Source: a virus. From it: DNA of 16,824 bases. This document shows, piece by piece, positions 176 to 16,824 of this stretch. Location: UHGV virus genome UHGV-0124552. One strand, written 5' to 3'. Below the pieces are notes generated by a model that saw nothing but the letters and a program-made list of their open reading frames with translations, searched no databases and was not told where the DNA came from. A program made the position numbers and the translations under genes. Every line of letters begins with the position of its first letter. Position 1 is the stretch's first letter.

Positions 176-445
176 TTACCTTAGACGCCATGGGCCCCTA
201 TCTTCAATCTGTTCGACTAACCCCTCCTCTTCTAGTTCACGCAATAGTGCAACAACCCAATATTGTTGGTTCGAACTTGTGGCTTTCCGTTTTTCTCCCC
301 AATCGAGGCCGCTTAGACGAAATACCTCAGCTTGCTTAACGCCGTTGCCGTTTTTTTGGGCATCTGGGTGAGTTTTAAGTACGGATAAAGCCAATTCTTT
401 GGCTCTGTTGCGCAATTCCGCTCCCTGATGCTGAAACTTATTCAT
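176..445 (-). CDS. Hypothetical 89-aa protein between attL and int; possible small DNA-binding protein
   Basis: ATG at 445 preceded on the - strand by GGAG with an 8-nt spacer. Open frame of 89 codons. No family recognised with confidence. Confidence 0.5.
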   Translation of the reverse strand: MNKFQHQGAELRNRAKELALSVLKTHPDAQKNGNGVKQAEVFRLSGLDWGEKRKATSSNQQYWVVALLRELEEEGLVEQIEDRGPWRLR

Positions 446-503: not shown

Positions 504-1535
504 TCAAAAACTTGCTATTGATGTTGGTAGTGTTGCCAGCGGATTAAACCGTAATGCAGTTTCCAGGTGATCCGGTGCTAGATGTGCGTAACGCATAGTC
601 ATTTTTATGTCGTGATGTCCGAGGATTTTTTGCAAAGCAAGGATATTTCCACCCGACATCATAAAATGCGCCGCAAACGTATGGCGCAGAACGTGTGTCA
701 GTTGACCGCGAGGGAGCACGATAGACGTTTTTTCCATCACGGATAAAAATTGAAAATAGCAGTCTGTGAAGAAATTGAACCCATCGAGCGCCATGATCTC
801 TTCGTAAAGCTCTTTACTGATAGGGATGCTTCTGTTTTTCTTCCCCTTCGTTCTGACAAAGGTAATTCGGTATTTGGTCACCTGTGAGCGGGTAAGGTTT
901 ATTGCTTCTCGCCAGCGTGCGCCTGTGCTTAAGCATATCTTGACTACCAGTGCCAGAATTGGGTCCTGACGTTTGCAATCATCCAGCAGTTCAACAATCT
1001 GCTCATGGGTAAGCCATGCCATCTCTTTTTCTGCGATGGTGAATTTTCGCATGTTCTCCAGTGGGTTTGGATACGACCATTCGCCCAGGCGGGATAGTTC
1101 GCTAAAAACACTACTTAGATAGCTTTGCTCCAGGTTAATGGTGACCGGGCTGGCCCCTTTCTTCCATTTCTCGCTGAAGTAGATCTCACCTGTCAGTCGT
1201 TTATCTCGATAATGGGCAAACATTTTAGATGTGAGATCGGTTGCAAGGGGATTGCCCAGAGCGTCAACCATCAGCAGCAATTTGTCATAGACATGCTGCC
1301 CAGCAGTCAGAGATTTACCATGTAGTTTGAACCATAGCTCAACCACGTCTTTCAGGGTTCGACGATCTACTGATTCGCCCAGCCAGGGCTTTGCTTCGGT
1401 TTCTTCCATCGTGTGACGCTCAAAAGCCAGTGCTTCGCCTTTGGTGGCGAATTGTTTACGCACACGACGCCCACTACGTCCGGCGGGGTAACATTCGCAA
1501 AGCCATTTTCCTGTGGTGAGTTTTCGTACTGCCAT
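504..1535 (-). CDS. int: Tyrosine recombinase / phage integrase, P2/186 Int family
   Basis: N-terminus MAVRKL..GKWLCECYPAGRSGRRVRKQF closely resembles P2/186 Int (recalled from memory). C-terminal catalytic region LRHTFAAHF ... MRYAHL. ATG at 1535 has a GGAGGG RBS 8 nt upstream; the longer track ORF starting at 1613 is probably an over-extension. Confidence 0.9.
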   Translation of the reverse strand: MAVRKLTTGKWLCECYPAGRSGRRVRKQFATKGEALAFERHTMEETEAKPWLGESVDRRTLKDVVELWFKLHGKSLTAGQHVYDKLLLMVDALGNPLATDLTSKMFAHYRDKRLTGEIYFSEKWKKGASPVTINLEQSYLSSVFSELSRLGEWSYPNPLENMRKFTIAEKEMAWLTHEQIVELLDDCKRQDPILALVVKICLSTGARWREAINLTRSQVTKYRITFVRTKGKKNRSIPISKELYEEIMALDGFNFFTDCYFQFLSVMEKTSIVLPRGQLTHVLRHTFAAHFMMSGGNILALQKILGHHDIKMTMRYAHLAPDHLETALRFNPLATLPTSIASF

Positions 1536-1721
1536 AAAAAATGCCCTCCAATAGAGAGCATTTTTACTGTATGTATAACCAGTGTCAATGTATGAAATCT
1601 TGCGACCATACATCTCACTGAAGCCATAATGAAGTTGGCTATTTTTTGCTATGTGAGTATGTGACTTTTGCGGTTAGCCTGCGGCTCATTGTTATATTAG
1701 GCGCAGATATAAAAGCAAAAA

Positions 1722-1913
1722 TTATCGCGAGTTTTTAGTACAGATTTTTTTTGATTTACTAATAGTTCCATCATTGCAAACGAACTTTCCATCGGAGGTA
1801 CAGTGAGAGACACCTCCCTTTTTCCCAGAACAAGGATAATTTTTAGCATAGGTAGTTAGTGGGTTTAATAACAAAGAGCATGATAAAACCACAAAAAATA
1901 CCTTACCAAGCAT
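1722..1913 (-). CDS. Small secreted or lipoprotein-like cysteine-rich peptide (63 aa), moron between cI and int
   Basis: Strong RBS (GGAGG, 5-nt spacer) before ATG at 1913. Hydrophobic N-terminal signal-like segment [23 protein letters not shown] followed by a Lys-rich 40-aa region with 4 Cys. AT-rich relative to neighbours. Confidence 0.55.
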
Positions 1914-1928
1914 AGTTTCCTCCCGGTA

Positions 1929-2498
1929 TTACCTAACGTACTTAATTGTTAAACTTATAATTTTTCCAATTATTTCAACATCTTCTATCTTGCACTCGAA
2001 GGATCTGTTTCCACCTTCAACGAAGATTCTTCCACCGGGTAAACGAGTAATGTCGCGGATTGTTATTTCGCCATCAATACTTATTACCCATTTACCATCA
2101 CGTATATCATCAAATTCTTTATCACAAATAAATTCAGAATTGTTATCTGTGATGACAAAAGGTTTTTTAAACGTAGAGGGTAGAAATCCCTTATCAAAAA
2201 TATAAAAACCGTCTTCACGCAAGGCACCATCAGATAATACATATTTAGCAACTTCCATCGTATTTGTATTACCTGAAGTTTGCTTTGAACCATGTCCAGT
2301 TGTGAGCCAATTAAGCGAGGTGCCCGTTTCAAGGGCGCACTGGATTACCCATTCTGCTGGGAATGAGTCACGCATGTAGCGTGTAGCGAGTGTACTTTTA
2401 GAGATTCCTAAATGATCGCACAACGCCTGTCGAGTTTTGAATCCATAAGCTTCTACCATGCGCTCTATAGCGCCTCGTCCGCCTTTCTCCAAATTCAT
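1929..2498 (-). CDS. cI: Phage 186 CI-type immunity repressor (N-terminal HTH plus C-terminal oligomerisation domain)
   Basis: About 190 aa, with HTH-like segment TRQALCDHLGISKSTLATRYMRDS. Sits divergent to apl-cII as in phage 186. ATG at 2498 with GGAG 5 nt upstream; the track start at 2504 is GTG. Confidence 0.75.
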   Translation of the reverse strand: MNLEKGGRGAIERMVEAYGFKTRQALCDHLGISKSTLATRYMRDSFPAEWVIQCALETGTSLNWLTTGHGSKQTSGNTNTMEVAKYVLSDGALREDGFYIFDKGFLPSTFKKPFVITDNNSEFICDKEFDDIRDGKWVISIDGEITIRDITRLPGGRIFVEGGNRSFECKIEDVEIIGKIISLTIKYVR

Positions 2499-2522
2499 GG
2501 TCACTCCAAGTGAACTTTTATC

Positions 2523-2551
2523 TTGACGATTTCATAGTGCGATCGTATGTT
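2523..2551 (+). promoter_or_regulatory. Candidate early lytic promoter (pR-like) for the apl-cII-A operon
   Basis: TTGACG (2523-2528), 17-nt spacer, TATGTT (2546-2551), lying in the cI/apl divergent intergenic region. Confidence 0.4.
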
Positions 2552-2623
2552 TATGGTGTTCACAAAATACAAACGATCCGTATTCGTCCTGATTAATCAT
2601 CATTAAACGAGGAATGTTGCATC

Positions 2624-2845: not shown

Positions 2846-2877
2846 TTCGATTCTGAAATACATCAGAGGCATTGACC

Positions 2878-3387
2878 ATGTTTGATTACCAAGTTTCCAA
2901 ACATCCACATTTTGATGAAGCCTGTCGTGCATTTGCACTGCGCCACAATCTGGTGCAACTGGCAGAACGTGCAGGCATGAATGTGCAGATTCTGCGGAAC
3001 AAGCTGAACCCAGCTCAGCCTCATTTATTAACCGCACCAGAAATCTGGCTGCTTACCGATCTGACTGAAGATTCAACGCTGGTAGATGGTTTTCTGGCAC
3101 AGATTCACTGCCTGCCATGTGTACCGATTAATGAGGTTGCAAAAGAGAAACTGCCGCATTACGTCATGAGCGCAACTGCAGAGATCGGACGTGTTGCAGC
3201 AGGTGCGGTATCTGGTGATGTAAAAACTAGTGCCGGTCGTCGTGATGCTATCAGCAGCATTAACTCTGTAACACGACTGATGGCGCTGGCTGCTGTTTCA
3301 TTGCAGGCCCGTTTACAGGCTAATCCTGCGATGGCGAGTGCAGTTGATACCGTGACTGGCCTCGGTGCTTCATTCGGTTTGCTGTGA
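2878..3387 (+). CDS. cII: 186 CII-like lysogeny establishment regulator
   Basis: 169 aa from ATG 2878 (GAGG RBS 8 nt upstream); same size and position as 186 CII. The track start at 2872 is TTG. Confidence 0.6.
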
Positions 3388-3967: not shown

Positions 3968-4201
3968 ATGCGTAATATTGAGATCCTCACGACTAAAACC
4001 GGATCGGATGATGCAGGGCTTAATATTTTACTGACAGTGGCTCGTCTGGAAGAACGCCGGGCAAGGGCTGAAGCAATGGCAGCTCGCCTTGATAGCCTGG
4101 CGTGTCATATCTCATCCCGTCAGCTAAACCACGTGGAAGCAGCAGAACTACTGCGTGTAACTGCTGAAGCAATCCAGAACGAAGCGCAGGAGATCCACTA
4201 A
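3968..4201 (+). CDS. Hypothetical early phage protein (77 aa)
   Basis: AGGAGA RBS (3954-3959) 8 nt before ATG 3968. Its stop overlaps the start of the next gene (TAATG). Confidence 0.5.
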   Translation: MRNIEILTTKTGSDDAGLNILLTVARLEERRARAEAMAARLDSLACHISSRQLNHVEAAELLRVTAEAIQNEAQEIH

Positions 4202-4428
4202 TGGCTGATGCAATGGATCTCGTACAGCAGCGCGTTGAAGAAGAACGCCAGCGCCATATTCGTGCTGCCCGTGCCAAAACACCGGGCGTGTCTCGCGTGC
4301 TTTGTATTGAATGTGAAGCGCCAATTCCGCCAGCACGACGCCGCGCCATTCCGGGAGTGCAGCTTTGCATTACCTGCCAGGAAATCGCAGAGCTGAAAGG
4401 CAAACATTACAACGGAGGTGCTGTATGA
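4201..4428 (+). CDS. TraR/DksA-family C4 zinc-finger protein
   Basis: CIECEAPIP ... CITCQ gives a Cys-x2-Cys ... Cys-x2-Cys arrangement. AGGAG RBS 8 nt upstream. Typical small gene of P2-like early operons. Confidence 0.7.
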   Translation: MADAMDLVQQRVEEERQRHIRAARAKTPGVSRVLCIECEAPIPPARRRAIPGVQLCITCQEIAELKGKHYNGGAV

Positions 4429-5282
4429 GCACCATCCTGAAATGGGCGGGAAATAAAACCGCCATTATGTCCGAACTGAAAAAACACCTTCCTGCTGGCC
4501 CGCGACTGGTTGAACCTTTCGCGGGTTCCTGTGCTGTGATGATGGAGACGGATTACCCCAGCTATCTGGTTGCGGATATTAATCCTGATTTAATCAACCT
4601 CTATAAAAAGGTTGCCGCTGATTGTGAATCGTTTATATCTCGCGCCAGAGTTTTATTTGAGATCGCAAACAGGGAGGTGGTTTATTACAACATAAGGCAG
4701 GAGTTTAATTACTCCACTGAAATTACTGATTTCATGAAAGCGGTATATTTCCTGTATCTCAATCGTCACGGTTACCGTGGTTTATGTCGCTATAACAAGA
4801 GCGGGCATTTCAACATTCCCTACGGTAATTATAAAAATCCGTATTTCCCTGAAAAAGAAATTCGCGCATTTGCAGAAAAGGCCCAGCGAGCAACGTTTAT
4901 CTGCGCCAGCTTTGATGAAACGCTGGCGATGTTGAAGGCGGGGGATGTGGTGTATTGCGATCCGCCGTATGACGGTACGTTTTCCGGCTATCACACTGAC
5001 GGCTTCACTGAAGATGACCAGTATCACCTGGCATCTGTTCTTGAACATCGGTCATCAGAAGGACATCCGGTCATTGTTTCTAACAGTGACACATCCCTGA
5101 TCCGTTCGCTGTATCGCAATTTTACTCACCACTACATCAAGGCAAAACGCAGCATCGGTGTGGCAGCTGGCGAGGGTAAATCAGCAACAGAAATCATTGC
5201 TGTTTCCGGGCCGCGCTGCTGGGTGGGATTTGATTATTCGCGTGGCGTGGATAGTTCTGCCGTGTACGGAGTACGTGCATGA
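4425..5282 (+). CDS. dam: DNA N6-adenine methyltransferase (Dam-like)
   Basis: N-terminal LKWAGNK and catalytic CDPPYDG (DPPY motif). GGAGG RBS 7 nt before ATG 4425. Stop overlaps the gpA start (ATGA). Confidence 0.85.
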
Positions 5283-7693
5283 GTCATGCCGATATGAACA
5301 ACTGCTGCGGCTTTAACGAGGCTGCCGCAGCATTCTCATGGAACAGCCCGAAAAAGGCCATTAACCCTTATCTGGACCCGGCGGAAGTTGCGCCGGTTTC
5401 TACGCTTTCAAACCTGATCACTCTGTACGCTGCCGATAACGAGCAGGAACAGTTGCGCCGCGAGGCACTGAGTGATCAGGTCTGGGAGCGTTATTTCTTT
5501 AATGAATCACGTGATCCTGTCCAGCGCGAAATGGAGCAGGATAAGCTCATTAGCCGGGCAAAGCTGGCGCATGAGCAGCAGCGTTTTAATTCAGACATGG
5601 TCATTCTGGCGGACGTCAACGCCCAGCCTTCCCATATCAGCAAGCCGCTGATGCAACGTATTGAATACTTCAGCAGCCTGGGCAGGCCAAAGGCTTATTC
5701 CCGCTATTTACGTGAGACGATTAAGCCATGTCTGGAACGACTGGAGCATGTACGCGACAGTCAGCTATCTGCATCTTTTCGCTTTATGGCAAGCCATGAA
5801 GGGCTGGATGGCCTGCTGATCCTGCCTGAAATGAGTCAGGATCAGGTGAAACGCCTGTCCACCCTGGTAGCTGCGCATATGAGTATGTGCCTTGATGCAG
5901 CTTGTGGTGATTTGTATGCCACCGATGACGTTAAGCCAGAAGAAATCCGCAAGACATGGGAAAAGGTGGCAGCGGAAACCCTGCGTCTGGATGTCATCCC
6001 ACCTGCGTTTGAGCAACTCCGTCGGAAAAGAAACCGCCGTAAACCCGTGCCCTATGAACTCATTCCGGGTTCGCTGGCGCGTATGTTGTGCGCCGACTGG
6101 TGGTATCGGAAATTATGGAAGATGCGTTGCGAATGGCGGGAAGAGCAGTTGCGCGCTGTTTGCCTGGTCAGCAAAAAAGCATCTCCTTATGTCAGCTATG
6201 AAGCCGTGATGCATAAACGTGAGCAGCGCCGTAAGTCGCTGGAGTTTTTCCGTTCTCATGAACTGGTGAACGAAGACGGCGACACGCTGGACATGGAGGA
6301 TGTGGTAAACGCCAGCAGCAGCAACCCTGCGCATCGCCGCAATGAGATGATGGCCTGTGTTAAAGGTCTGGAGCTTATCGCGGAAATGCGCGGTGACTGC
6401 GCCGTTTTCTACACTATCACCTGTCCGTCGCGTTTCCATTCCACGCTAAATAACGGCAGACCAAACCCGACCTGGACAAACGCGACGGTAAGACAAAGCA
6501 GCGATTATCTGGTCGGCATGTTTGCTGCATTTCGTAAGGCGATGCACAAAGCCGGGTTGCGCTGGTATGGCGTGCGGGTGGCTGAGCCGCATCATGATGG
6601 CACAGTTCACTGGCACCTGTTGTGTTTCATGCGCAAAAAAGACCGCCGTGCCATCACTGCATTACTGCGTAAGTTTGCCATCCGTGAAGACCGCGAGGAG
6701 CTGGGCAATAACACTGGGCCGCGCTTTAAGTCTGAGTTGATTAACCCGCGCAAAGGAACGCCGACAAGCTACATCGCGAAATATATCAGTAAGAACATTG
6801 ACGGTCGTGGTCTGGCTGGCGAGATCAGCAAGGAAACGGGTAAATCTCTGCGTGATAACGCTGAATACGTGAATGCCTGGGCGTCTCTGCATCGTGTTCA
6901 GCAATTCCGCTTCTTTGGTATTCCGGGGCGTCAGGCTTACCGTGAACTTCGCTTGCTGGCTGGTCAGGCGGCAAGGCAACAGGGTGACAAAAAAGCAGGT
7001 GCGCCGGTACTGGATAACCCGCGTCTTGATGCCATTCTGGCTGCTGCTGATGCTGGTTGTTTTGCCACCTACATCATGAAGCAGGGCGGCGTACTGGTTC
7101 CCCGTAAATATCACCTCATCAGAACCGCTTATGAAATCAACGAAGAGCCGACCGCCTATGGCGATCACGGCATTCGTATTTATGGCATCTGGTCACCCAT
7201 TGCAGAGGGCAAGATCTGCACTCATGCAGTGAAGTGGAAAATGGTTCGTAAAGCCGTTGACGTTCAGGAGGCGGCAGCCGACCAGGGCGCTTGCGCCCCT
7301 TGGACTCGTGGCAATAACTGTCCCCTTGCTGAAAATTTGTACCAACAAGGGAAAGACAAATCAGCTGATGGGGATACCAGAACGGATATCACCCGTATGG
7401 ATGACAAGGAGTTGCACGATTACCTGCACAGTATGAACAAAAAAGAACGCCGGGAACTGGCTGCAAGGTTACGCCTGGTGAAACCGAAACGGCGTAGAGA
7501 CTACAAACAGCGAATTACAGACCATCAACGACAGCAGCTCGTCTATGAACTGAAGTCCAGAGGATTTGACGGCAGCGAGAAAGAGGTCGATTTACTCCTT
7601 CGCGGCGGCAGCATTCCGTCAGGAGCAGGCCTGCGTATTTTCTATCGGAACCAGCGTTTGCAGGAAGATGATAAGTGGCGGAACCTGTATTAA
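5279..7693 (+). CDS. A: P2 gpA-family rolling-circle replication initiation endonuclease
   Basis: 804 aa, with HUH-type motif VHWHLLCF and active-site tyrosine motif YIAKYISKN. Last gene of the early operon. Confidence 0.85.
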
Positions 7694-8279: not shown

Positions 8280-8663
8280 GAAACGTTGCTGGCGTCTGAA
8301 CTTGCTTCTGGCGTCAGCAAGGTTGAACAACGAGCTATGCGAGGCGTTAGCCATCTGATCAAAAGACATCAAATATCATATTGTATATCGTGGTCAAACG
8401 CTGGAAACAATCATTCCCGATCAGAGGGGCTTCTTTCAATGTCCAAAAGAGTGAGATAGAGGATACAGGATGGGAAGAGCTTTTGATTAATTATCGTCCA
8501 AGTTTTTCAAAAGCTTCTTATCTGGCGGTCGATACATGATTTACTGTTGGATATGGTATTTAAAATTAATCTTTACACTGTGGTATATGCAGAATAGGAT
8601 ATTATCAATACAATCAAACTGTTTTCATACGGTTATTAATATTGCAATGTTATAGGTAATGTC

Positions 8664-9782
8664 ATGTATCTTTTCAAGTATTACCGTCCGGACTTCTTCT
8701 TCGAGAAAGCTATTCGTTATAATGAATTATATTTTTCCGCTCCTGCGCAATTGAATGATCCCAATGATCTCAATATAGATTATCGCTTCGATAATAAATT
8801 GAAATTATGGGATATTTTATTGCGTTCTCCTTGCGATAAATCCTATAAAAATTTGAGTCACATATTGGATTTGAGTAATTTGAAAATACATAAGGGATTG
8901 AATCGTATTTTTAGAGGAAAAAAAATAAAAAGTAGCATTGAGTCATTAGATAGCCTGTTCGACTCACACGTTGATGAGATACGTAAGATCATAGATGATG
9001 GTTTACTACCTATCAATGTGATTAATTCTGCTATTTATGGAAATATTCCTGAACCACGCCAATATTTGGTTTCACTTTGCGAGAACAGTATCAAAGAAAG
9101 GTTGTATAGGAAAATAGTTCCTGCAGTATTCAGTGTGTCATTTTCAGCTAATGCGTTAGATCGTATGATGTGGGCGCATTATGCTGCTGGCTTTAGTGGT
9201 TGTGTTGTGATTTATGAAACGCAGGATTTTAATATTGATGGTATACCCTATACTGGAATGAAGCTAAGAGAAAATTTATTTTCATCAGATAAATTTAATT
9301 TTCCAGTTAAGCCAATAAAATATAGTAATCAGGCTAAAGAGGTTTCACTTCTAGACCCAAGCGCAAATGTTGCAGAGTTATTTTTAACTAAAAATAGATT
9401 TTGGAGATATGAAGCTGAATATCGAATGTTTATTCCGGAGGCAAATGCAGGAATAGGGAGTGAGCGGCATGTTCAAAGACGCGTAAATCGAAATATTGGA
9501 CATATTTTTCATCATGATGCTAATGTTGTTAAAGGGATCATTTTTGGTCCTAGAATGTGTGAAATGAAAAAAGAAAGCATATGGAATTGTATCAAGTCAA
9601 ATATGGAGAATTCAAATTCAACAATATGTTATTTTTTTGACTCTGAGTTATCAGCATCAGGAAAGATTACTATTTCAAAAGGGCAACGAGCGGAAAAAAT
9701 GAAAAATTTCACTTTGTTCAGGAACAAGTTAAGTCAGACGGAAATGGCTAAAGTTTTGAAGGAAATTGGCATTACGAACTAA
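8664..9782 (+). CDS. DUF2971-like protein (372 aa) of unknown function; candidate single-gene defence/abortive-infection protein
   Basis: N-terminal YRPDFFFEKAIRYNELYFSAPAQLNDPND, central VFSVSFSANALDRMMWAHYAAGFSGCVVIY and C-terminal KNRFWRYEAEYRMF match the motif pattern I associate with DUF2971. Very AT-rich, preceded by about 380 bp of AT-rich non-coding DNA and followed by a terminator. Confidence 0.6.
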   Translation: MYLFKYYRPDFFFEKAIRYNELYFSAPAQLNDPNDLNIDYRFDNKLKLWDILLRSPCDKSYKNLSHILDLSNLKIHKGLNRIFRGKKIKSSIESLDSLFDSHVDEIRKIIDDGLLPINVINSAIYGNIPEPRQYLVSLCENSIKERLYRKIVPAVFSVSFSANALDRMMWAHYAAGFSGCVVIYETQDFNIDGIPYTGMKLRENLFSSDKFNFPVKPIKYSNQAKEVSLLDPSANVAELFLTKNRFWRYEAEYRMFIPEANAGIGSERHVQRRVNRNIGHIFHHDANVVKGIIFGPRMCEMKKESIWNCIKSNMENSNSTICYFFDSELSASGKITISKGQRAEKMKNFTLFRNKLSQTEMAKVLKEIGITN

Positions 9783-9848
9783 CCTAACAACAGTGCATGC
9801 CTATGCTGCCTGAATTTGCATGACCGTTTGAGGATCGTTTTTGCTAAG

Positions 9849-9875
9849 GCCCGCCAGAACTGGCGGGCTTTTGCG
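9849..9875 (+). terminator. Rho-independent terminator after the DUF2971-like gene
   Basis: GCCCGCCA (9849-9856), loop gaac, TGGCGGGC (9861-9868), then TTTTGCG. Confidence 0.65.
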
Positions 9876-9917
9876 TGGATCAGGCACCTGCATGAAAACC
9901 ACTACACAAAGCGGGCA

Positions 9918-9936
9918 GGCGTGGCGGGGATACGAG
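9918..9936 (+). other. cos: cos-like sequence (possible cohesive-end site or remnant of a P2/186-type phage)
   Basis: GGCGTGGCGGGGATACGAG matches the remembered 186 cos GGCGTGGCGGGGAAAGCAT in the first 13 nt (15 of 19 overall). It lies in a short GC-rich island between two AT-rich insertions, in the same orientation relative to Q as P2 cos. Confidence 0.4.
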
Positions 9937-10007
9937 CGCGCGCAGCGGGTGGAAACTCAGATTTGAATGTTGTATAAAAGATGGGATCATTCTGAGGAAA
10001 AGTGGAT

Positions 10008-10913
10008 ATGAAAAAGAAAACTATTCCGGAGTTGCAGAAGCAAAATCTGGCAAATTTAATTAAAAGTCGGCTTTTTCAACAGAAAAATAAAAATAAAGTT
10101 ACTGTTTTCCTTTGCGGGGGCGATTTGAATGATCCGTTTTTTTGTAGAAATAAAGTTAAAAGAGTGTTGGAAACACATCCCAAAATAGAAATATTCTATC
10201 CTGAGGAGTTGTTTGATGAGCTTTTGTATGGACAAGGTCAGCATAGTCTTTTAAGTTTGGAGAATATTTTAGCTGATTCAGTCGATGTTATTATTATTAT
10301 TCCTGAAAGCCCAGGGTCTTTCGCTGAATTGGGCGCATTTTCAAATAATGAAAAACTGTGCAAAAAAATGATATGTCTTCAGGATGACAAATTCAAACTT
10401 AAAAAAAGCTTTCTTAATTATGGGCCTATAAAACTGCTTCGGCGTGCTAATAGCGGTGCAGTATTGCGAGGAGATTTGTCGACTCTTGAAAGCTTGAGTA
10501 CAGGTAAAGCTTTTTATAATAGAATTATAAAAAGTATTAATGACATCAAAAAAAATAACCCAGTTAATCACTCAATAGATAATATTCTTCACGCTCGGCG
10601 TTTTATACTGCCATGTATATATTTGATGGATGGTATAGATAATATACTTCTATATGAGCTATTACATTTGGTGACTAAGAAAGATGCTATTCTTTGTGAA
10701 ATTATCGTTAAGTCTGTTATTTCAAGCTTGATTAAAGAGTCAATAATTAGGCGTTCAGTTCAAGGATACCATATTACAGAAATTGGTATGCAATACGTTC
10801 TTGAGCATTTTGATCGAAAGGCTTTGGACAATCTACGACTGGATATGATGAACTTCGAAAATCGTGGTAAAACAATACTCCACTATGATAGGATGCGTTT
10901 TGCGCACCCTTAG
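10008..10913 (+). CDS. Retron effector: nucleoside 2-deoxyribosyltransferase-like (NDT-like) protein, as in the Ec86 (Retron-Eco1) family
   Basis: VFLCGG ... VIIIIPESPGSFAELGAFS resembles the NDT-like fold motif with a catalytic Glu. Its stop codon lies inside the retron a1 repeat, immediately upstream of msr-msd and the RT. GAGGA RBS 9 nt before ATG 10008; the track start at 10002 is GTG. Confidence 0.65.
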   Translation: MKKKTIPELQKQNLANLIKSRLFQQKNKNKVTVFLCGGDLNDPFFCRNKVKRVLETHPKIEIFYPEELFDELLYGQGQHSLLSLENILADSVDVIIIIPESPGSFAELGAFSNNEKLCKKMICLQDDKFKLKKSFLNYGPIKLLRRANSGAVLRGDLSTLESLSTGKAFYNRIIKSINDIKKNNPVNHSIDNILHARRFILPCIYLMDGIDNILLYELLHLVTKKDAILCEIIVKSVISSLIKESIIRRSVQGYHITEIGMQYVLEHFDRKALDNLRLDMMNFENRGKTILHYDRMRFAHP

Positions 10914-11061
10914 CGAGTGGCTTCTCCGGAAGTTCACTGGACAGTGTTTCGCTGTCCTACATACAATCTGAAGTTTTACCAGTTCCCTCATTGAAAGGAG
11001 AACATCTCCCGATGTTCTCCTTTCACTTCGGAATCTGATTTTTATGACGTAAGGGTGCGCT
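10901..11061 (+). ncRNA. msr-msd: Retron msr-msd non-coding RNA (template/primer for msDNA), Ec86-like
   Basis: Inverted repeats a1 TGCGCACCCTTA (10901-10912) and a2 TAAGGGTGCGC (11050-11060). The 5' 17 nt TGCGCACCCTTAGCGAG and the 3' TGACGTAAGGGTGCGC are identical to the Ec86 ncRNA as I remember it. msr hairpin GGACAG-tgtttcg-CTGTCC (10939-10957). Long msd hairpin GAAAGGAGAACATC-tccc-GATGTTCTCCTTTC (10993-11024). Confidence 0.75.
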
Positions 11062-11062
11062 C

Positions 11063-12037
11063 ATGACTTCCGCAACACCATCTCAGGTTTTTCGCTTACG
11101 CAATCTTGGATTGCCTGTTATGTCCTCTTTAGAGGATATGTCTAGAGAAATGCGTTTATCAGTAGACATACTCCGGTTGTACATTTATCGTGCTGACAAA
11201 TACTATAAGGTTTATTCGTTGCCAAAAAGAGATGGCAAGAGATCCCGCATCATTTCACAGCCATCACGTGAGCTGAAGGCATTGCAAGCTTGGGTGTTAA
11301 GAAACATCCTTGATAAGTTACATTCATCCCCATTTTCCAAAGGCTTTGAAAAAGGGCAATCAATATTAAATAATGCCAGCCCACATGTAGGAGCTAACTA
11401 TGTATTAAATATTGATTTAGAAGATTGTTTTAATACTATTCTGATAGAGAAAATCTATACTGTTTTTCATTCTCTGGGGTATAACTCTACTATTTCTAAT
11501 GCTTTAGCAAGATTGTGTTCATTTAATGGTTCGCTACCTCAAGGTGCACCATCTTCTCCAAAGATTGCGAATCTTGTTTTAACTAAATTAGATTATAGAA
11601 TACATGGATATGCAGGTAGTAAGGGGATCGTATTTACTCGATATGCCGATGATTTGACTTTATCTGCTCAATCTTTAAAAAAAATACTTAAAGCTAAGTC
11701 ATTTGTATGCTCTATAATACCAAGTGAATCTTTGAAGGTTAATTATAATAAAGTTGCGATTCATGGCCCCAAAGCAAGGAAGGAGGTTACTGGGCTCGTT
11801 TTATCTATTGATAATGTTGGAGTTGGCAGAATACGTTATCGCGAAATTAGAAGTAAGATCCATTATCTGGCGGTAAAAAGAAATTCTGATTTCGAACATG
11901 TTAAAGGACTTATTGCGTTTGTTAAAAGTGTAGACAAGAAAAACTATAGAAAATTGATGACTTTCTCAAATAAAATGTCTGAAGCATATGGGGTTGATCT
12001 AAGTGTTCTTTTTCCTAAAAACAAAAAGGCCATTTAA
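11063..12037 (+). CDS. ret: Retron reverse transcriptase (Ec86 / Retron-Eco1-like)
   Basis: N-terminus FRLRNLGLPVM and QPSRELKALQAWVLRNILDKL closely resemble Ec86 RT (from memory). Also QGAPSSPKIANL, the catalytic YADD (RYADDLTLSA) and the retron-specific VTG motif (KEVTGLVL). Start codon abuts the a2 repeat. Confidence 0.85.
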   Translation: MTSATPSQVFRLRNLGLPVMSSLEDMSREMRLSVDILRLYIYRADKYYKVYSLPKRDGKRSRIISQPSRELKALQAWVLRNILDKLHSSPFSKGFEKGQSILNNASPHVGANYVLNIDLEDCFNTILIEKIYTVFHSLGYNSTISNALARLCSFNGSLPQGAPSSPKIANLVLTKLDYRIHGYAGSKGIVFTRYADDLTLSAQSLKKILKAKSFVCSIIPSESLKVNYNKVAIHGPKARKEVTGLVLSIDNVGVGRIRYREIRSKIHYLAVKRNSDFEHVKGLIAFVKSVDKKNYRKLMTFSNKMSEAYGVDLSVLFPKNKKAI

Positions 12038-12050
12038 TGGCCTTTTTGTT
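12023..12050. terminator. Bidirectional rho-independent terminator shared by the convergent ret and Q genes
   Basis: AAAAAGGCCAT-tta-ATGGCCTTTTT palindrome with A/T runs on both sides. The ret stop codon lies in the loop and the Q stop immediately beyond. Confidence 0.55.
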
Positions 12051-12052
12051 TA

Positions 12053-13081
12053 TTAGGTAATTGAATAACTCACGAAATTAATAACTTCTTCATTTATCCA
12101 TTCGTTCAGCTCTTCTAGTCTTTTTTGTAAAGGGATGAGTTCATTCCTCACAAAAACATTAGCAGCTTTCTCTACATCCCCAAACCCCCCAATATTATTC
12201 GGCATGATCCCCATCATCTGCGGCGGCACGCGGTGCGCAGCCATCATGTCATCCCGGCTCACGTTCTTGATATTCAGAAACTCATCCTTCGCCGCGACTT
12301 CTGACAATGGGATGATCTGAAGTCCGTCCTTTTTGCCGTTAGGCGAGTACATAAACAGATTGCGGAAGTTACCTGGTCCTTTGGCGCTTTTCATCGTATT
12401 GCGGAGGTTGTTCACATCCTCCTGGTTCTGCGCAGCATCGGTCATGTACATGATGAAGCCTGCATGACTGCCGTTAATGTAATACTTGCGGCGGAACAGC
12501 GTGGCGGACTCGTTGAGCAGAGCTGACGGAATGGCAGAAAGATAACCGGGCAGGCCGTAGATCTCCTGGTTAATGTCCGGTTCCATCAGATGAAAAATGC
12601 TGCCTTTCGTGAACTGATACGGCTGGGTTGTCATACCGTATTGCACAAACCAGTAGGTATCCAGGTCTAACCCGCGTCGGGTGTATTTTGCCAGTGCAGG
12701 CTCAAGGGCGATAACTTCACCGAAGCGGTTCGTGCGTTTCTCCAGGTAGGCGTTACCAAAAACCAGATAGTCCTGCACAAAACGCGAAAAAGCCTGCTGG
12801 CTGAGTAGCGGGTGAGGGATGTAGGTGCTGGTCAGAATGTTGCATTTCACCGCAATTGGTGAACTGTGATGCACGGCAGCGCGGAAGGTGCGCGCCAGTC
12901 CGTCAAAGCTGACAGGAGGCTCATACCAGCGATCTGTCTGTACGCATTCCACATAGTCCAGCAGTTCGCGGCGGTCAAGTACAGGAACGGGATCACCGAA
13001 GCTGAATGCTTCGGCTGAAGTCTGGCTTTTATGCTTGAGCTGATTCGTCGCCGCAGCGCGGTTTTTCTTAATCTTTCCCAT
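12053..13081 (-). CDS. Q: Portal protein (P2 gpQ-like)
   Basis: About 342 aa, size and sequence style of P2 gpQ. Convergent with ret and divergent from O, as in P2. ATG at 13081 overlaps the P stop (ATGA). The last ~25 codons (12053-12130) are AT-rich, unlike the rest of the gene. Confidence 0.8.
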   Translation of the reverse strand: MGKIKKNRAAATNQLKHKSQTSAEAFSFGDPVPVLDRRELLDYVECVQTDRWYEPPVSFDGLARTFRAAVHHSSPIAVKCNILTSTYIPHPLLSQQAFSRFVQDYLVFGNAYLEKRTNRFGEVIALEPALAKYTRRGLDLDTYWFVQYGMTTQPYQFTKGSIFHLMEPDINQEIYGLPGYLSAIPSALLNESATLFRRKYYINGSHAGFIMYMTDAAQNQEDVNNLRNTMKSAKGPGNFRNLFMYSPNGKKDGLQIIPLSEVAAKDEFLNIKNVSRDDMMAAHRVPPQMMGIMPNNIGGFGDVEKAANVFVRNELIPLQKRLEELNEWINEEVINFVSYSIT

Positions 13082-14847
13082 CAAAAAATCTCCACAATAT
13101 TGCTGGTATTGGCGGATTCGCCCTGCAGCGGTTCGTTAAACAATGCGTGCATCGTTGCCCAGGCCAGATCGGCGTGGCTGGCTTCTTCGCTGCGGCTGGC
13201 TTCATAGGTCGGGCGGTTGCCGCTGGCGGTGGTGGCGCGACGGATTGCCATGAATGACTGCGCAATGTCGCTGTGCCCGGCGTCAAACTCCAGACGGCGG
13301 TGGCTGATAATGTCGTAGGCCTTGAGTACCAGAGCGTTTTTAACGTTGGGGTTGTAGACAAACTCCCGGACGGCTGGAAAAAACGCTTTCACGTTCTCAT
13401 AAACTCCGTGACCGACACCCGTCGAGTCGATGCCGATATATGTCACGTTGTACTGTTCGGTCAGTTTTTTGATGGCGTCCGCCTGGGCGCGGAAGTCCAT
13501 CCCGCGCCACTGGTGGCGCTCAAGAATACGGAACTTACCGCCCGGCACGGCTGGCGGTGCCACCACCACGCATCCGGCGCTGTCGCCGTTCTGCGTACCT
13601 TTTGCCGGGTCATAACCGATCCACACTTCGCGCCACCCAAACGGGCGAAGGGCCAGTGCATGAAAGTCGGTCCAGACTTCCCAGCTGTCCACCATGCACG
13701 CCTGCAGCTCGCTGAGCGGAAACACGGACGCGAGATCGTCCACAAACTCGCACATCAGCAGGTTCTGGTATTCGTCCGGGCTGTACTCCATGCGTAGTTG
13801 GTCGAGGTCGAACAGGTTACAGCCGCCGCGCACCGCATCTTCCACGGTGACTATCTGGCGGTATTGCCCGTCTGCGCACAGCAGGCCGGGGGCCAGATTG
13901 CTGTGGGACAGGTCGATGTCCACCTTGTCGGCTTTGTTGCGTCCACGGTTGAACAGCGCACCGGACCAGAACGGATAAGCACTGTGGGTCAGGCTGGATG
14001 GCGTGGAAAAATAGGTTTGTCGCCATTTTTTGTGAATAGCCATACCGGAAGCCACTTTGCGCAGCTCCTGGAATTTCGGTATCCAGAAATATTCATCCAG
14101 ATACAGGTTGCCGTGGTAACTCTGGGCAGTGCGGGCATTGGTGCCGAGGAAATACAGTGTGGCCCCGTTGGGAAGCACCATCGGATCGCCTTTCAGCTCC
14201 ACTTCCACTTCTTTGGCGAAGTCGATGATGTACTGCTTAAAGACGTGCGCCTGTGCCTTACTGGCAGAAAGGAAAATCTGGTTACGTCCGGTTAGCAGGG
14301 CGTCAATCAGGGCTTCACGGGCAAAATAGAAGGTCGCGCCGATCTGGCGTGACTTCAGCAGGTTGCGGATGCGGTTGGTTTTTCCGGCTTCCCACCAGTG
14401 ACGCTGGTAGTTGAACATGGAGGAATGGAAGATTTCTTCCAGCTTCTCAATCTGTTCATCGGTGAAAACATTCTTTTCAGGCTGACGGCGCGGGCCTTTG
14501 TTGCGGTTGGCGACGTTAGGGTTTAAATCGGCTTCGTTGCCGCCATTGTTAAACTTGCCGATCCGCGCGTGGCGCTCCGACTGGCGCGCCAGCAGATCAA
14601 TTTCTTTGAAATCTTTCCCTTCTTTGTGCTCCTTCATAATGAGCTGGCAGTAACGTGCGGCGGTGGTGAGCTGCATCTGATCCAGCGGCCCATAGTCACC
14701 CCACTTGTCGCGTTTTTTCCAGCTGTGAACGGTTGCAACTTTCTCGCCCAGCATTTCAGCAATGCGGGCTACGCGGTATCCCTGAAAGTACAGCAGCATG
14801 GCCTGCCGACGGGGATCGAGATCTGCGGGTGTCAGTGTGGTGTTCAT
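13081..14847 (-). CDS. P: Terminase large (ATPase) subunit (P2 gpP-like)
   Basis: 588 aa (P2 gpP is about 590). N-terminus LDPRRQAMLLYFQGYRVARIAEMLG resembles gpP. Upstream of Q on the same strand. Confidence 0.85.
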   Translation of the reverse strand: MNTTLTPADLDPRRQAMLLYFQGYRVARIAEMLGEKVATVHSWKKRDKWGDYGPLDQMQLTTAARYCQLIMKEHKEGKDFKEIDLLARQSERHARIGKFNNGGNEADLNPNVANRNKGPRRQPEKNVFTDEQIEKLEEIFHSSMFNYQRHWWEAGKTNRIRNLLKSRQIGATFYFAREALIDALLTGRNQIFLSASKAQAHVFKQYIIDFAKEVEVELKGDPMVLPNGATLYFLGTNARTAQSYHGNLYLDEYFWIPKFQELRKVASGMAIHKKWRQTYFSTPSSLTHSAYPFWSGALFNRGRNKADKVDIDLSHSNLAPGLLCADGQYRQIVTVEDAVRGGCNLFDLDQLRMEYSPDEYQNLLMCEFVDDLASVFPLSELQACMVDSWEVWTDFHALALRPFGWREVWIGYDPAKGTQNGDSAGCVVVAPPAVPGGKFRILERHQWRGMDFRAQADAIKKLTEQYNVTYIGIDSTGVGHGVYENVKAFFPAVREFVYNPNVKNALVLKAYDIISHRRLEFDAGHSDIAQSFMAIRRATTASGNRPTYEASRSEEASHADLAWATMHALFNEPLQGESANTSNIVEIF

Positions 14848-16715: not shown

Positions 16716-16778
16716 CGTTAAAGAATAGTGCTTCTAACATCATGATTTTAAACAGCTTAAATTTCAGACAACAAAAAA

Positions 16779-16821
16779 CCCATCAACCTTGAACCGAAAT
16801 GGCGGGGTTGATGGGCTCCAC
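16779..16821 (-). terminator. Rho-independent terminator-like hairpin in the right flank
   Basis: cccatcaacc (16779-16788) pairs with ggttgatggg (16806-16815) across a 17-nt loop. On the - strand the stem is followed by TTTTTTGTTG. The loop is long, so confidence is moderate. Confidence 0.35.
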
Positions 16822-16824
16822 AAA

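Follow-up and report, generated by a model that had tools for sequence, protein, structure and literature searches.

We analyzed a 63-codon open reading frame (ORF) on the minus strand of UHGV virus genome UHGV-0124552, a stretch of 16,824 nucleotides (nt) hereafter called the window, where it lies at positions 1722-1913 between the repressor gene cI and the integrase gene int. Our results showed that this ORF is an accessory (moron-type) gene in the immunity module of a 186-like Escherichia coli prophage and represents ordinary cargo of such elements. It is not an unknown orphan, as it is a member of the YdcA family, to which the chromosomal paralogue ydcA of E. coli K-12 also belongs, and RefSeq annotates it in hundreds of genomes. 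The identity of the gene, its coding status and the export of its product are, in our judgment, close to certain.

Identity, coding status and export of the gene product

The family was found via NCBIfam, PHROGs and precomputed Pfam labels (also PRK10040.1-2). NCBIfam model NF007463 matched the ORF with 116.1 bits against a curated cut-off of 93, residues 5-63 aligning with profile positions 1-58 of 58, and phrog_6000 matched it with an E-value of 4.6e-34; PHROG family 6000 is labelled 'unknown function'. The identical protein in RefSeq is WP_001321204.1, a 'YdcA family protein' whose coding sequence (CDS) is annotated at the same coordinates. PF27300 (YdcA) is the precomputed Pfam label on near-identical and related proteins; a local copy of Pfam-A from which PF27300 is absent gave no significant match for the ORF. 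Profile searches recovered 458 clusters at E <= 1e-3 among 1.84 billion representative proteins and, in a second search, 873 clusters at 90% identity. The allele itself is carried by 654 of 5,426 complete E. coli genomes (12%), those of BL21, HS and NC101 among them, and relatives are encoded on 493 IMG/VR contigs, where the best 80 loci contained near-identical copies only and added no diversity. The ORF is already catalogued, with a RefSeq name, an NCBIfam equivalog model, a Pfam family and a PHROG, and it is common in E. coli; therefore, the ORF itself is not news. The features of the gene and its product are as follows.

1722..1913, minus strand: ydcA-like CDS, 63 codons plus TAA stop, encoding the pre-protein of an exported YdcA-family mini-protein (ORF list, NCBIfam, phrog_6000, RefSeq, purifying selection)
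1845..1913, minus strand: putative signal peptide, residues 1-23, with a predicted signal peptidase I (SPase I) cut after Ala23 (alignment A1)
1725..1844, minus strand: mature 40-aa domain, 4.3 kDa, pI 9.6, with four conserved Cys (motif, AlphaFold2, homology to lobe 1 of Dis2)
1919..1923, minus strand: Shine-Dalgarno sequence GGAGG, 5 nt before the ATG of the ydcA-like gene (read from the sequence)

The alternative that the ORF is spurious, or that the cI-int spacer is non-coding, has practically nil probability in our view. The ORF is short and AT-rich, and its homologue is unannotated in phages HP2 and S2 and in several other phage records. Against this, the hidden Markov model scores exceed curated cut-offs, the 458 representative clusters come from a library of 1.84 billion proteins, the gene has a conserved ribosome-binding site and is closely coupled to cI. 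Synonymous differences overwhelmingly outnumber non-synonymous ones: over the 28 best-conserved mature codons, the window and another E. coli prophage copy differ by 15 synonymous and 2 non-synonymous changes, and in comparisons of the window with E. coli, Klebsiella and Yersinia prophage copies pS was 0.7-0.97 (saturated) and pN was 0.02-0.03. The ydcA-like gene is under strong purifying selection. The scores, the clusters and this excess of synonymous change rule out a spurious ORF, and the ORF is a genuine gene beyond reasonable doubt.

The original prediction, made from the DNA letters, had described a strong ribosome-binding site, an N-terminal signal-like segment and a Lys-rich mature region with four Cys, and each part of this description held. 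Across 27 diverse family members (alignment A1), the N-terminus has all the features expected of a cleavable Sec signal peptide. The pre-sequence, made up of the first 15-32 residues, varies freely while keeping a basic N-terminus and a hydrophobic core, and in all 27 members Ala at -1 is invariant and the -3 residue is A, S, T or V. From the variable pre-sequence, the invariant Ala at -1, the small -3 residue and the hydrophobic core we infer a Sec signal peptide, with a predicted SPase I cut after TYA(23). A lipoprotein signal of the entry-exclusion or Cor-Llp type, which has a lipobox with an invariant Cys at +1, was ruled out, as none of the 27 pre-sequences contains a lipobox; Cys12 of the window protein, a fifth Cys inside the signal peptide, is not conserved. 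Previously, K-12 YdcA was described as having a signal sequence and predicted to be periplasmic (PMC11340327).

The mature part contains the four Cys, and its 9 Lys/Arg stand against 2 Asp/Glu. Its motif PCSGxKGG[VI]xHC...F[VI]CxDGxxSxSKxxC is invariant or near-invariant in alignments A1, A3 and A4, the invariant or nearly invariant residues being C28, C38, C46, C58, K32, G33, G34, F44, D48, G49, S52, S54 and K55. AlphaFold2 modelled the mature core with two short strands (pLDDT 87-92). The signal peptide, together with the disulfides in the structure of the homologous Legionella pneumophila protein Dis2 (PMC8486379), suggests that the domain would be periplasmic and disulfide-bonded.

The cI-int slot in the window and in other prophages

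The window represents the immunity/integration end of a 186-like (P2-family) E. coli prophage, adjoining rcdA/ybjJ. The minus-strand order is cI (1929-2498), the 63-codon ORF (1722-1913), int (504-1535) and an 89-aa ORF (176-445); the plus strand carries apl (2624-2845), cII (2872-3387) and fil, followed by a Dam methylase gene and a replication endonuclease gene.

1929..2498, minus strand: cI repressor gene, 186 type (Pfam Phage_CI_repr and Phage_CI_C; RefSeq CDS)
1536..1721, minus strand: spacer of 186 nt between the ydcA-like gene and int (RNA fold, blastn breakpoints, promoter-like hexamers)
504..1535, minus strand: P2/186-type tyrosine integrase, whose gene follows the ydcA-like gene in the lysogenic operon (Pfam Int_N and Phage_integrase; RefSeq CDS)
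2499..2623, no strand assigned: cI-apl intergenic switch region (promoter-like site on the plus strand; layout like the annotated 186 switch)

It had been stated that 186 and P2 have no gene between repressor and int, and this was confirmed: the cI and int genes of 186 overlap by a single base, and the 115-bp C-int gap of P2 has nothing annotated inside. The ydcA-like gene is an accessory gene at a fixed position, missing from 186 and P2 and found between cI and int in prophages of six genera. A survey of this position showed that the coding ORF recurs in Escherichia, Klebsiella, Yersinia, Hafnia and Buttiauxella as well as in phage HP2, and among 145 phage records with a 186-type cI the YdcA gene was present in HP2 and S2 only. 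The Yersinia prophages have the order cI-YdcA-int, with cI proteins that are 25-33% identical to the window cI. In the E. coli and Klebsiella 186-like prophages (loci L168-L173) the order is cI-YdcA-KAP NTPase-int; the 443-aa KAP-family P-loop NTPase is encoded directly after the YdcA gene (positions 4198-5529 of these loci), matches the PADLOC defence candidate PDC-S20 with 570 bits, and is absent from the window. Hafnia and Buttiauxella prophages encode a secreted 133-143-aa protein between cI and YdcA, with int following. The secreted proteins of Hafnia (L184, 4567-4998) and Buttiauxella (L088, 4588-4989) form a homologous pair without a Pfam match. The Haemophilus phages HP2 and S2 carry a complete, unannotated 60-codon homologue whose ATG overlaps the cI stop codon (TAATG), followed on its 3' side by a secreted 254-aa ORF and then int. 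This 254-aa product, HP2 orf1(S), has a signal peptide. Klebsiella phage 4LV2017 has an unrelated 349-aa gene in its cI-int slot, and PADLOC gave no match for either HP2 orf1(S) or the 4LV2017 cargo gene. Altogether, the slot seems to be enriched in exported cargo. According to a 2026 survey, P2-like phages have a minor defence hotspot between integrase and primase (PMC13586616).

Across the elements that bear the gene in this slot, the mature domain is 70-89% identical, cI 25-70% and Int 47-95%. In the E. coli relative L168, the cI and ydcA block is 71% identical to that of the window and int is 91% identical, and the breakpoint falls between the ydcA stop codon and ~90 nt upstream of int (window ~1625-1729, blastn), which is the site of the KAP NTPase gene in L168. 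Because of this block structure, with its breakpoint after ydcA, we conclude that the ydcA-like gene and cI are one mosaic module: the gene travels with the immunity module, and extra cargo is added downstream. The term 'inserted', as used originally, does not hold insofar as it implies a recent event, since the gene travels with cI and its synonymous sites are saturated from Escherichia to Haemophilus.

Expression from the lysogenic transcript had also been proposed, and the sequence is consistent with it. The ATG of the ORF is separated by 15 nt from the cI stop codon (1929-1931), and no terminator-like site turned up on the coding (minus) strand in a scan of 400-2900; this arrangement suggests that the gene would be co-transcribed with cI. 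The cI-apl region, with pR and with a pL that is expected by analogy to 186, is the presumed source of the transcript carrying cI and the ydcA-like gene. A promoter scan located a plus-strand promoter-like site at 2523-2551 in this region and did not detect pL. Upstream of int's own promoter-like site, the minus strand shows only one promoter-like site, a weak one (9 of 12) that lies within the ORF at 1909..1880.

The 186-nt gap between the ORF and the int ATG at 1535 is structured, with a minimum free energy of -50 kcal/mol (RNA fold). A hairpin, AAAAATGCTCTC-TATT-GGAGGGCATTTTTT (window 1536-1600, minus strand), pairs the int Shine-Dalgarno sequence and is followed by a T-run; it overlaps the sigma-70-like hexamers TTGACA-17-AAAAAT (1588..1560), and the segment belongs to the int module (91% identical in L168). 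This hairpin could serve in attenuation or regulation of int downstream of the ydcA-like gene.

Other observations concern the rest of the element. The 89-aa ORF 3' of int (176-445, minus strand) occupies the position of 186 Orf69 and corresponds to the RefSeq hypothetical protein WP_001032044.1; it had no significant Pfam, PHROG or PADLOC match. Positions 16770-16824 (minus strand) are the 3' part of the RybB small RNA gene (Rfam RF00110, 62.6 bits), clipped by the window end, and two E. coli relatives that have a comparable cargo region with a retron align no further than window ~15770. Because of these two findings, the prophage appears to be a ~15.6-kb remnant between rcdA and rybB, truncated past the capsid-scaffold gene; strain PEC414 is one of the relatives in which the structural module is complete. 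The classical P2 gpA-Q hotspot (window ~8660-12040, plus strand), between the replication endonuclease gene (5279-7693) and the portal gene (12053-13084, minus strand), holds three ORFs whose 98%-identical RefSeq counterparts are a retron St85-family reverse transcriptase, a retron St85-family effector and a DUF2971 protein. The PEC414 relative has a TIR-domain gene instead at this hotspot.

Relatives of the YdcA domain

K-12 YdcA (b1419; PF27300; NF007462/NF007463) is among the nearest known proteins. In K-12 YdcA and in the window protein, a single four-Cys domain of ~35 aa comes after a signal peptide; the two proteins share the motif PCSGxKGG[VI]SHC...KFVCNDGxISxSKKxC, and are both predicted to be periplasmic. 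They differ in that the window protein fits the prophage-type model NF007463 and falls below the cut-off of the K-12-type model NF007462 (68 bits vs 118), and in that K-12 ydcA is chromosomal (cybB-rydC-ydcA) whereas the window gene lies in a prophage lysogenic operon. Between the two genes synonymous sites are saturated and pN is 0.11.

Chromosomal ydcA genes in non-mobile contexts are found in K-12 and many other species. Among one-genome-per-species hits from Gamma-, Beta- and Alphaproteobacteria, the cI/int context was found in only ~6 of 72 loci; the neighbours were heterogeneous, and no conserved genomic partner was found in the 72 loci. YdcA genes also occur among the tail genes of Moraxella and Acinetobacter siphophages, and on Acinetobacter and Rhizobium plasmids. 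The E. coli 'plasmid' matches carry the chromosomal genes rcdA-ybjJ, and the Acinetobacter plasmid context was uninformative. The UniRef name 'Conjugal transfer protein' was rejected, as no type IV secretion system (T4SS) or tra genes were present in the context.

The only solved relative of the YdcA domain is Dis2 (Lpg0823; PDB 7MUC/7MUD), an outer-membrane-cap component of the L. pneumophila Dot/Icm type IVB system, which contains a homologous Cys-rich lobe. In hmmsearch against PDB sequences, Dis2 was recovered with E-values of 7.6e-5 (A1) and 2.3e-5 (A3) and ~38% identity over 39 aligned positions. It was also the top Foldseek match for both models (38-39% identity, query-normalised TM 0.43-0.60), at Foldseek E-values that were not significant. 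Previously, Dis2 was shown to be disulfide-pinned and located near the outer membrane (PMC8486379); its function could not be deduced by the authors who observed it in the T4SS structure from Legionella. Dis2 resembles the predicted window protein in being exported, disulfide-stabilised and placed under the outer membrane, and it differs in having two tandem lobes and five disulfides and in being a stoichiometric T4SS part, whereas the window protein is one free domain. Neither two lobes nor a T4SS association was found in the window, where the neighbours are phage genes and T4SS genes are absent.

Arrays of two or three tandem YdcA domains exist, and among the 120 best long-form matches 63 are longer paralogues of 130-150 aa. 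The longer paralogues sit in type VI secretion system (T6SS) clusters, either tssF-tssG-tssJ-tssE...ImpA_N/VasL or VgrG-Tle3-Tli3-PAAR. The enterobacterial examples share the N-terminal signal peptide and YdcA domain of the window protein and carry in addition a ~70-aa C-terminal extension with the motif CAPLYM..KPG, among tssF/G/J/E, ImpA_N-VasL or VgrG-Tle3-PAAR genes; in the window, by contrast, a phage operon encodes the domain by itself. The T6SS-cluster proteins appear to represent an accessory component of these clusters that has not been described before. Three loci with 130-176-aa paralogues inside enterobacterial T6SS clusters are L187 (5001-5399), L190 (6001-6447) and L193 (6001-6531), and one further protein (P0100) is a YdcA-VasL fusion in a decayed T6SS cluster.

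Furthermore, in nuclease fusions the YdcA domain stands directly after the signal peptide and is joined to SNase, Endonuclease_NS or PLD/Nuc domains, which are three unrelated folds, and two stand-alone YdcA copies adjoin SNase genes. Of the 458 representative clusters and 873 clusters at 90% identity that matched, ~270 family members were listed; only ~7 fusion clusters were among them, and the ones inspected contain 1-3 sequences each, all of metagenomic origin. The lpg1681 family (NCBIfam NF052673) was considered as a relative and set aside, its E-value of 0.11 being too weak for homology. This small Legionella envelope protein modulates homogentisic acid sensitivity and is linked to dsbD2; it was reported to have two transmembrane helices (eLife paper).

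In the literature on the function of YdcA, PRK10040 and PF27300 we found only 'unknown function, signal sequence' and one report of 3-hydroxypropionate (3-HP) sensitivity. The fixed cI linkage across P2-family prophages, the unannotated HP2/S2 copy, the Dis2 homology and the T6SS and nuclease associations were not found there; these are bioinformatic leads, not results.

Possible functions of the gene in a lysogen

Taken together, the Dis2 lobe, the T6SS paralogues, the nuclease fusions and the tandem arrays make the YdcA domain look like a small periplasmic binding or anchoring module. Since the domain is extremely conserved, its partner would be a universal non-protein ligand rather than a fast-evolving protein target. 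We tentatively favor the hypothesis, with confidence that is limited, that the product is a lysogen-made periplasmic binding module which brings about envelope conversion in the manner of superinfection exclusion. The ydcA-like gene would be transcribed with cI from the lysogenic promoters, so that the product would be made continuously in the lysogen. Sec would export the pre-protein, and after the cut behind Ala23 the 40-residue Lys-rich domain would fold in the periplasm with two disulfides. There it may bind a conserved, probably anionic, non-protein ligand, which could be DNA, peptidoglycan or the inner face of the outer membrane. The free domain might then hinder foreign DNA or trans-envelope machines in the periplasm, and the most likely benefit would be lysogenic conversion at the envelope. 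The basic mature domain, with its pI of 9.6, speaks for this hypothesis, as does a slot that carries other secreted proteins and the PDC-S20 candidate.

Known envelope exclusion or conversion proteins include P1 Sim, T4 Imm/Sp, the Cor/Llp lipoproteins, Ltp and P2 old/tin/fun. Prophage exclusion proteins and the window protein are alike in being small, exported, encoded by temperate phages, dispensable for the phage and placed for expression in the lysogen. The known proteins have no sequence similarity to the window protein, which is a non-lipoprotein and, unlike typical exclusion proteins, is extremely conserved and common outside phages.

Several observations weigh against a role in exclusion. 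No experiment or published phenotype ties YdcA-family proteins to phage exclusion, and a search of PADLOC-DB with the ydcA-like ORF matched 0 families at E <= 0.01. Because most species-level occurrences are chromosomal, with unrelated neighbors and no conserved partner, and only ~6 of 72 have the cI/int context, the core role of the family need not concern phages. The nuclease fusions are rare and are mostly metagenomic singletons, and transcription from pL/pE is what we infer. Finally, the only reported ydcA phenotype is that deletion sensitised E. coli W to 3-HP (PMC7642389), an effect more in line with envelope or acid stress than with exclusion.

That phenotype leads to the main rival, which we regard as somewhat unlikely: the product would have nothing to do with exclusion and would instead serve envelope fitness. 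By binding peptidoglycan or the outer membrane, the free domain would slightly alter robustness, such as tolerance of acid or organic acids, and the lysogen would benefit from one more copy of a housekeeping periplasmic protein of the host type. The occurrence of chromosomal ydcA in K-12 and many species in non-mobile contexts fits this, as do the 3-HP sensitivity, the up-regulation of ydcA at pH 5 in earlier reports cited in the same paper (PMC7642389), the position of Dis2 next to the outer membrane, and the extreme conservation of the domain, which favors a universal ligand over a phage-specific target. However, lysogens already own a chromosomal ydcA, so that a second copy needs a reason; its repeated retention at a repressor-linked slot beside secreted cargo and a defence candidate suggests a role in conflict; and the 3-HP phenotype is a single report and was overridden by yieP deletion. 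We find it improbable that the product is a periplasmic nucleic-acid-binding protein acting with or against nucleases, which would recruit or modulate attack on incoming DNA or protect phage DNA. The fusions to three nuclease folds directly after the signal peptide, the stand-alone copies adjoining SNase genes at two loci and the basic, Gly/Lys/Ser-rich conserved loop would all agree with such a protein, but the fusion clusters number ~7 among the ~270 members listed, with 1-3 metagenomic sequences each, the window cI-int slot has no nuclease gene, and the T4SS and T6SS contexts are better explained by envelope anchoring.

The small toxin that the original prediction had offered as one candidate is unlikely, since neither an export partner nor an immunity partner accompanies the gene and secretion machines contain this domain as a structural element. 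More broadly, we consider it very unlikely that the product is a secreted toxin or bacteriocin-like peptide, or an orphan protein that confers immunity to a toxin acting in the periplasm. A secreted peptide that is small, cationic and disulfide-bonded does bear a superficial likeness to defensins or microcins, and in one T6SS cluster the paralogue comes right behind a PAAR gene and a 474-aa gene, where immunity genes are typically found. Yet no dedicated exporter, processing or immunity gene is nearby, the neighbors being cI and int only, and a Sec signal alone delivers the product no further than the periplasm; moreover, structural proteins and nucleases contain the domain as a built-in part, and it is nearly invariant across proteobacterial classes whereas toxins and immunity proteins usually evolve fast. 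The two other original candidates, an entry-exclusion peptide and an envelope factor, are possible.

Exclusion by a periplasmic binding module could also be cast in a wider form, which we regard as speculative and a poor bet: YdcA would be a universal module that positions Dis2, T6SS clusters and secreted nucleases, and prophages of the P2/186/HP type would express a free copy with the repressor as a target-independent barrier, occupying the ligand and blocking DNA or contractile trans-envelope machines (phage tails, tailocins, T6SS). If true, this would be an undescribed class of superinfection exclusion, acting in the periplasm.

A prophage moron encoding a small exported protein is unsurprising to a specialist, and the finding would be routine if the gene had only a mild effect on envelope fitness. 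What stands out is an exported domain of 40 residues that hardly changes between Haemophilus and Escherichia, is linked to the repressor gene in P2-family prophages and also makes up a lobe of Dis2. The linkage, Dis2, T6SS and nuclease leads make the function of the family more tractable, and BL21, whose allele is 99.6% identical, is a natural carrier of the gene. Solving this function would explain a common cargo of the lysogenic operon, and probably also Dis2, the T6SS-cluster paralogues and K-12 ydcA.
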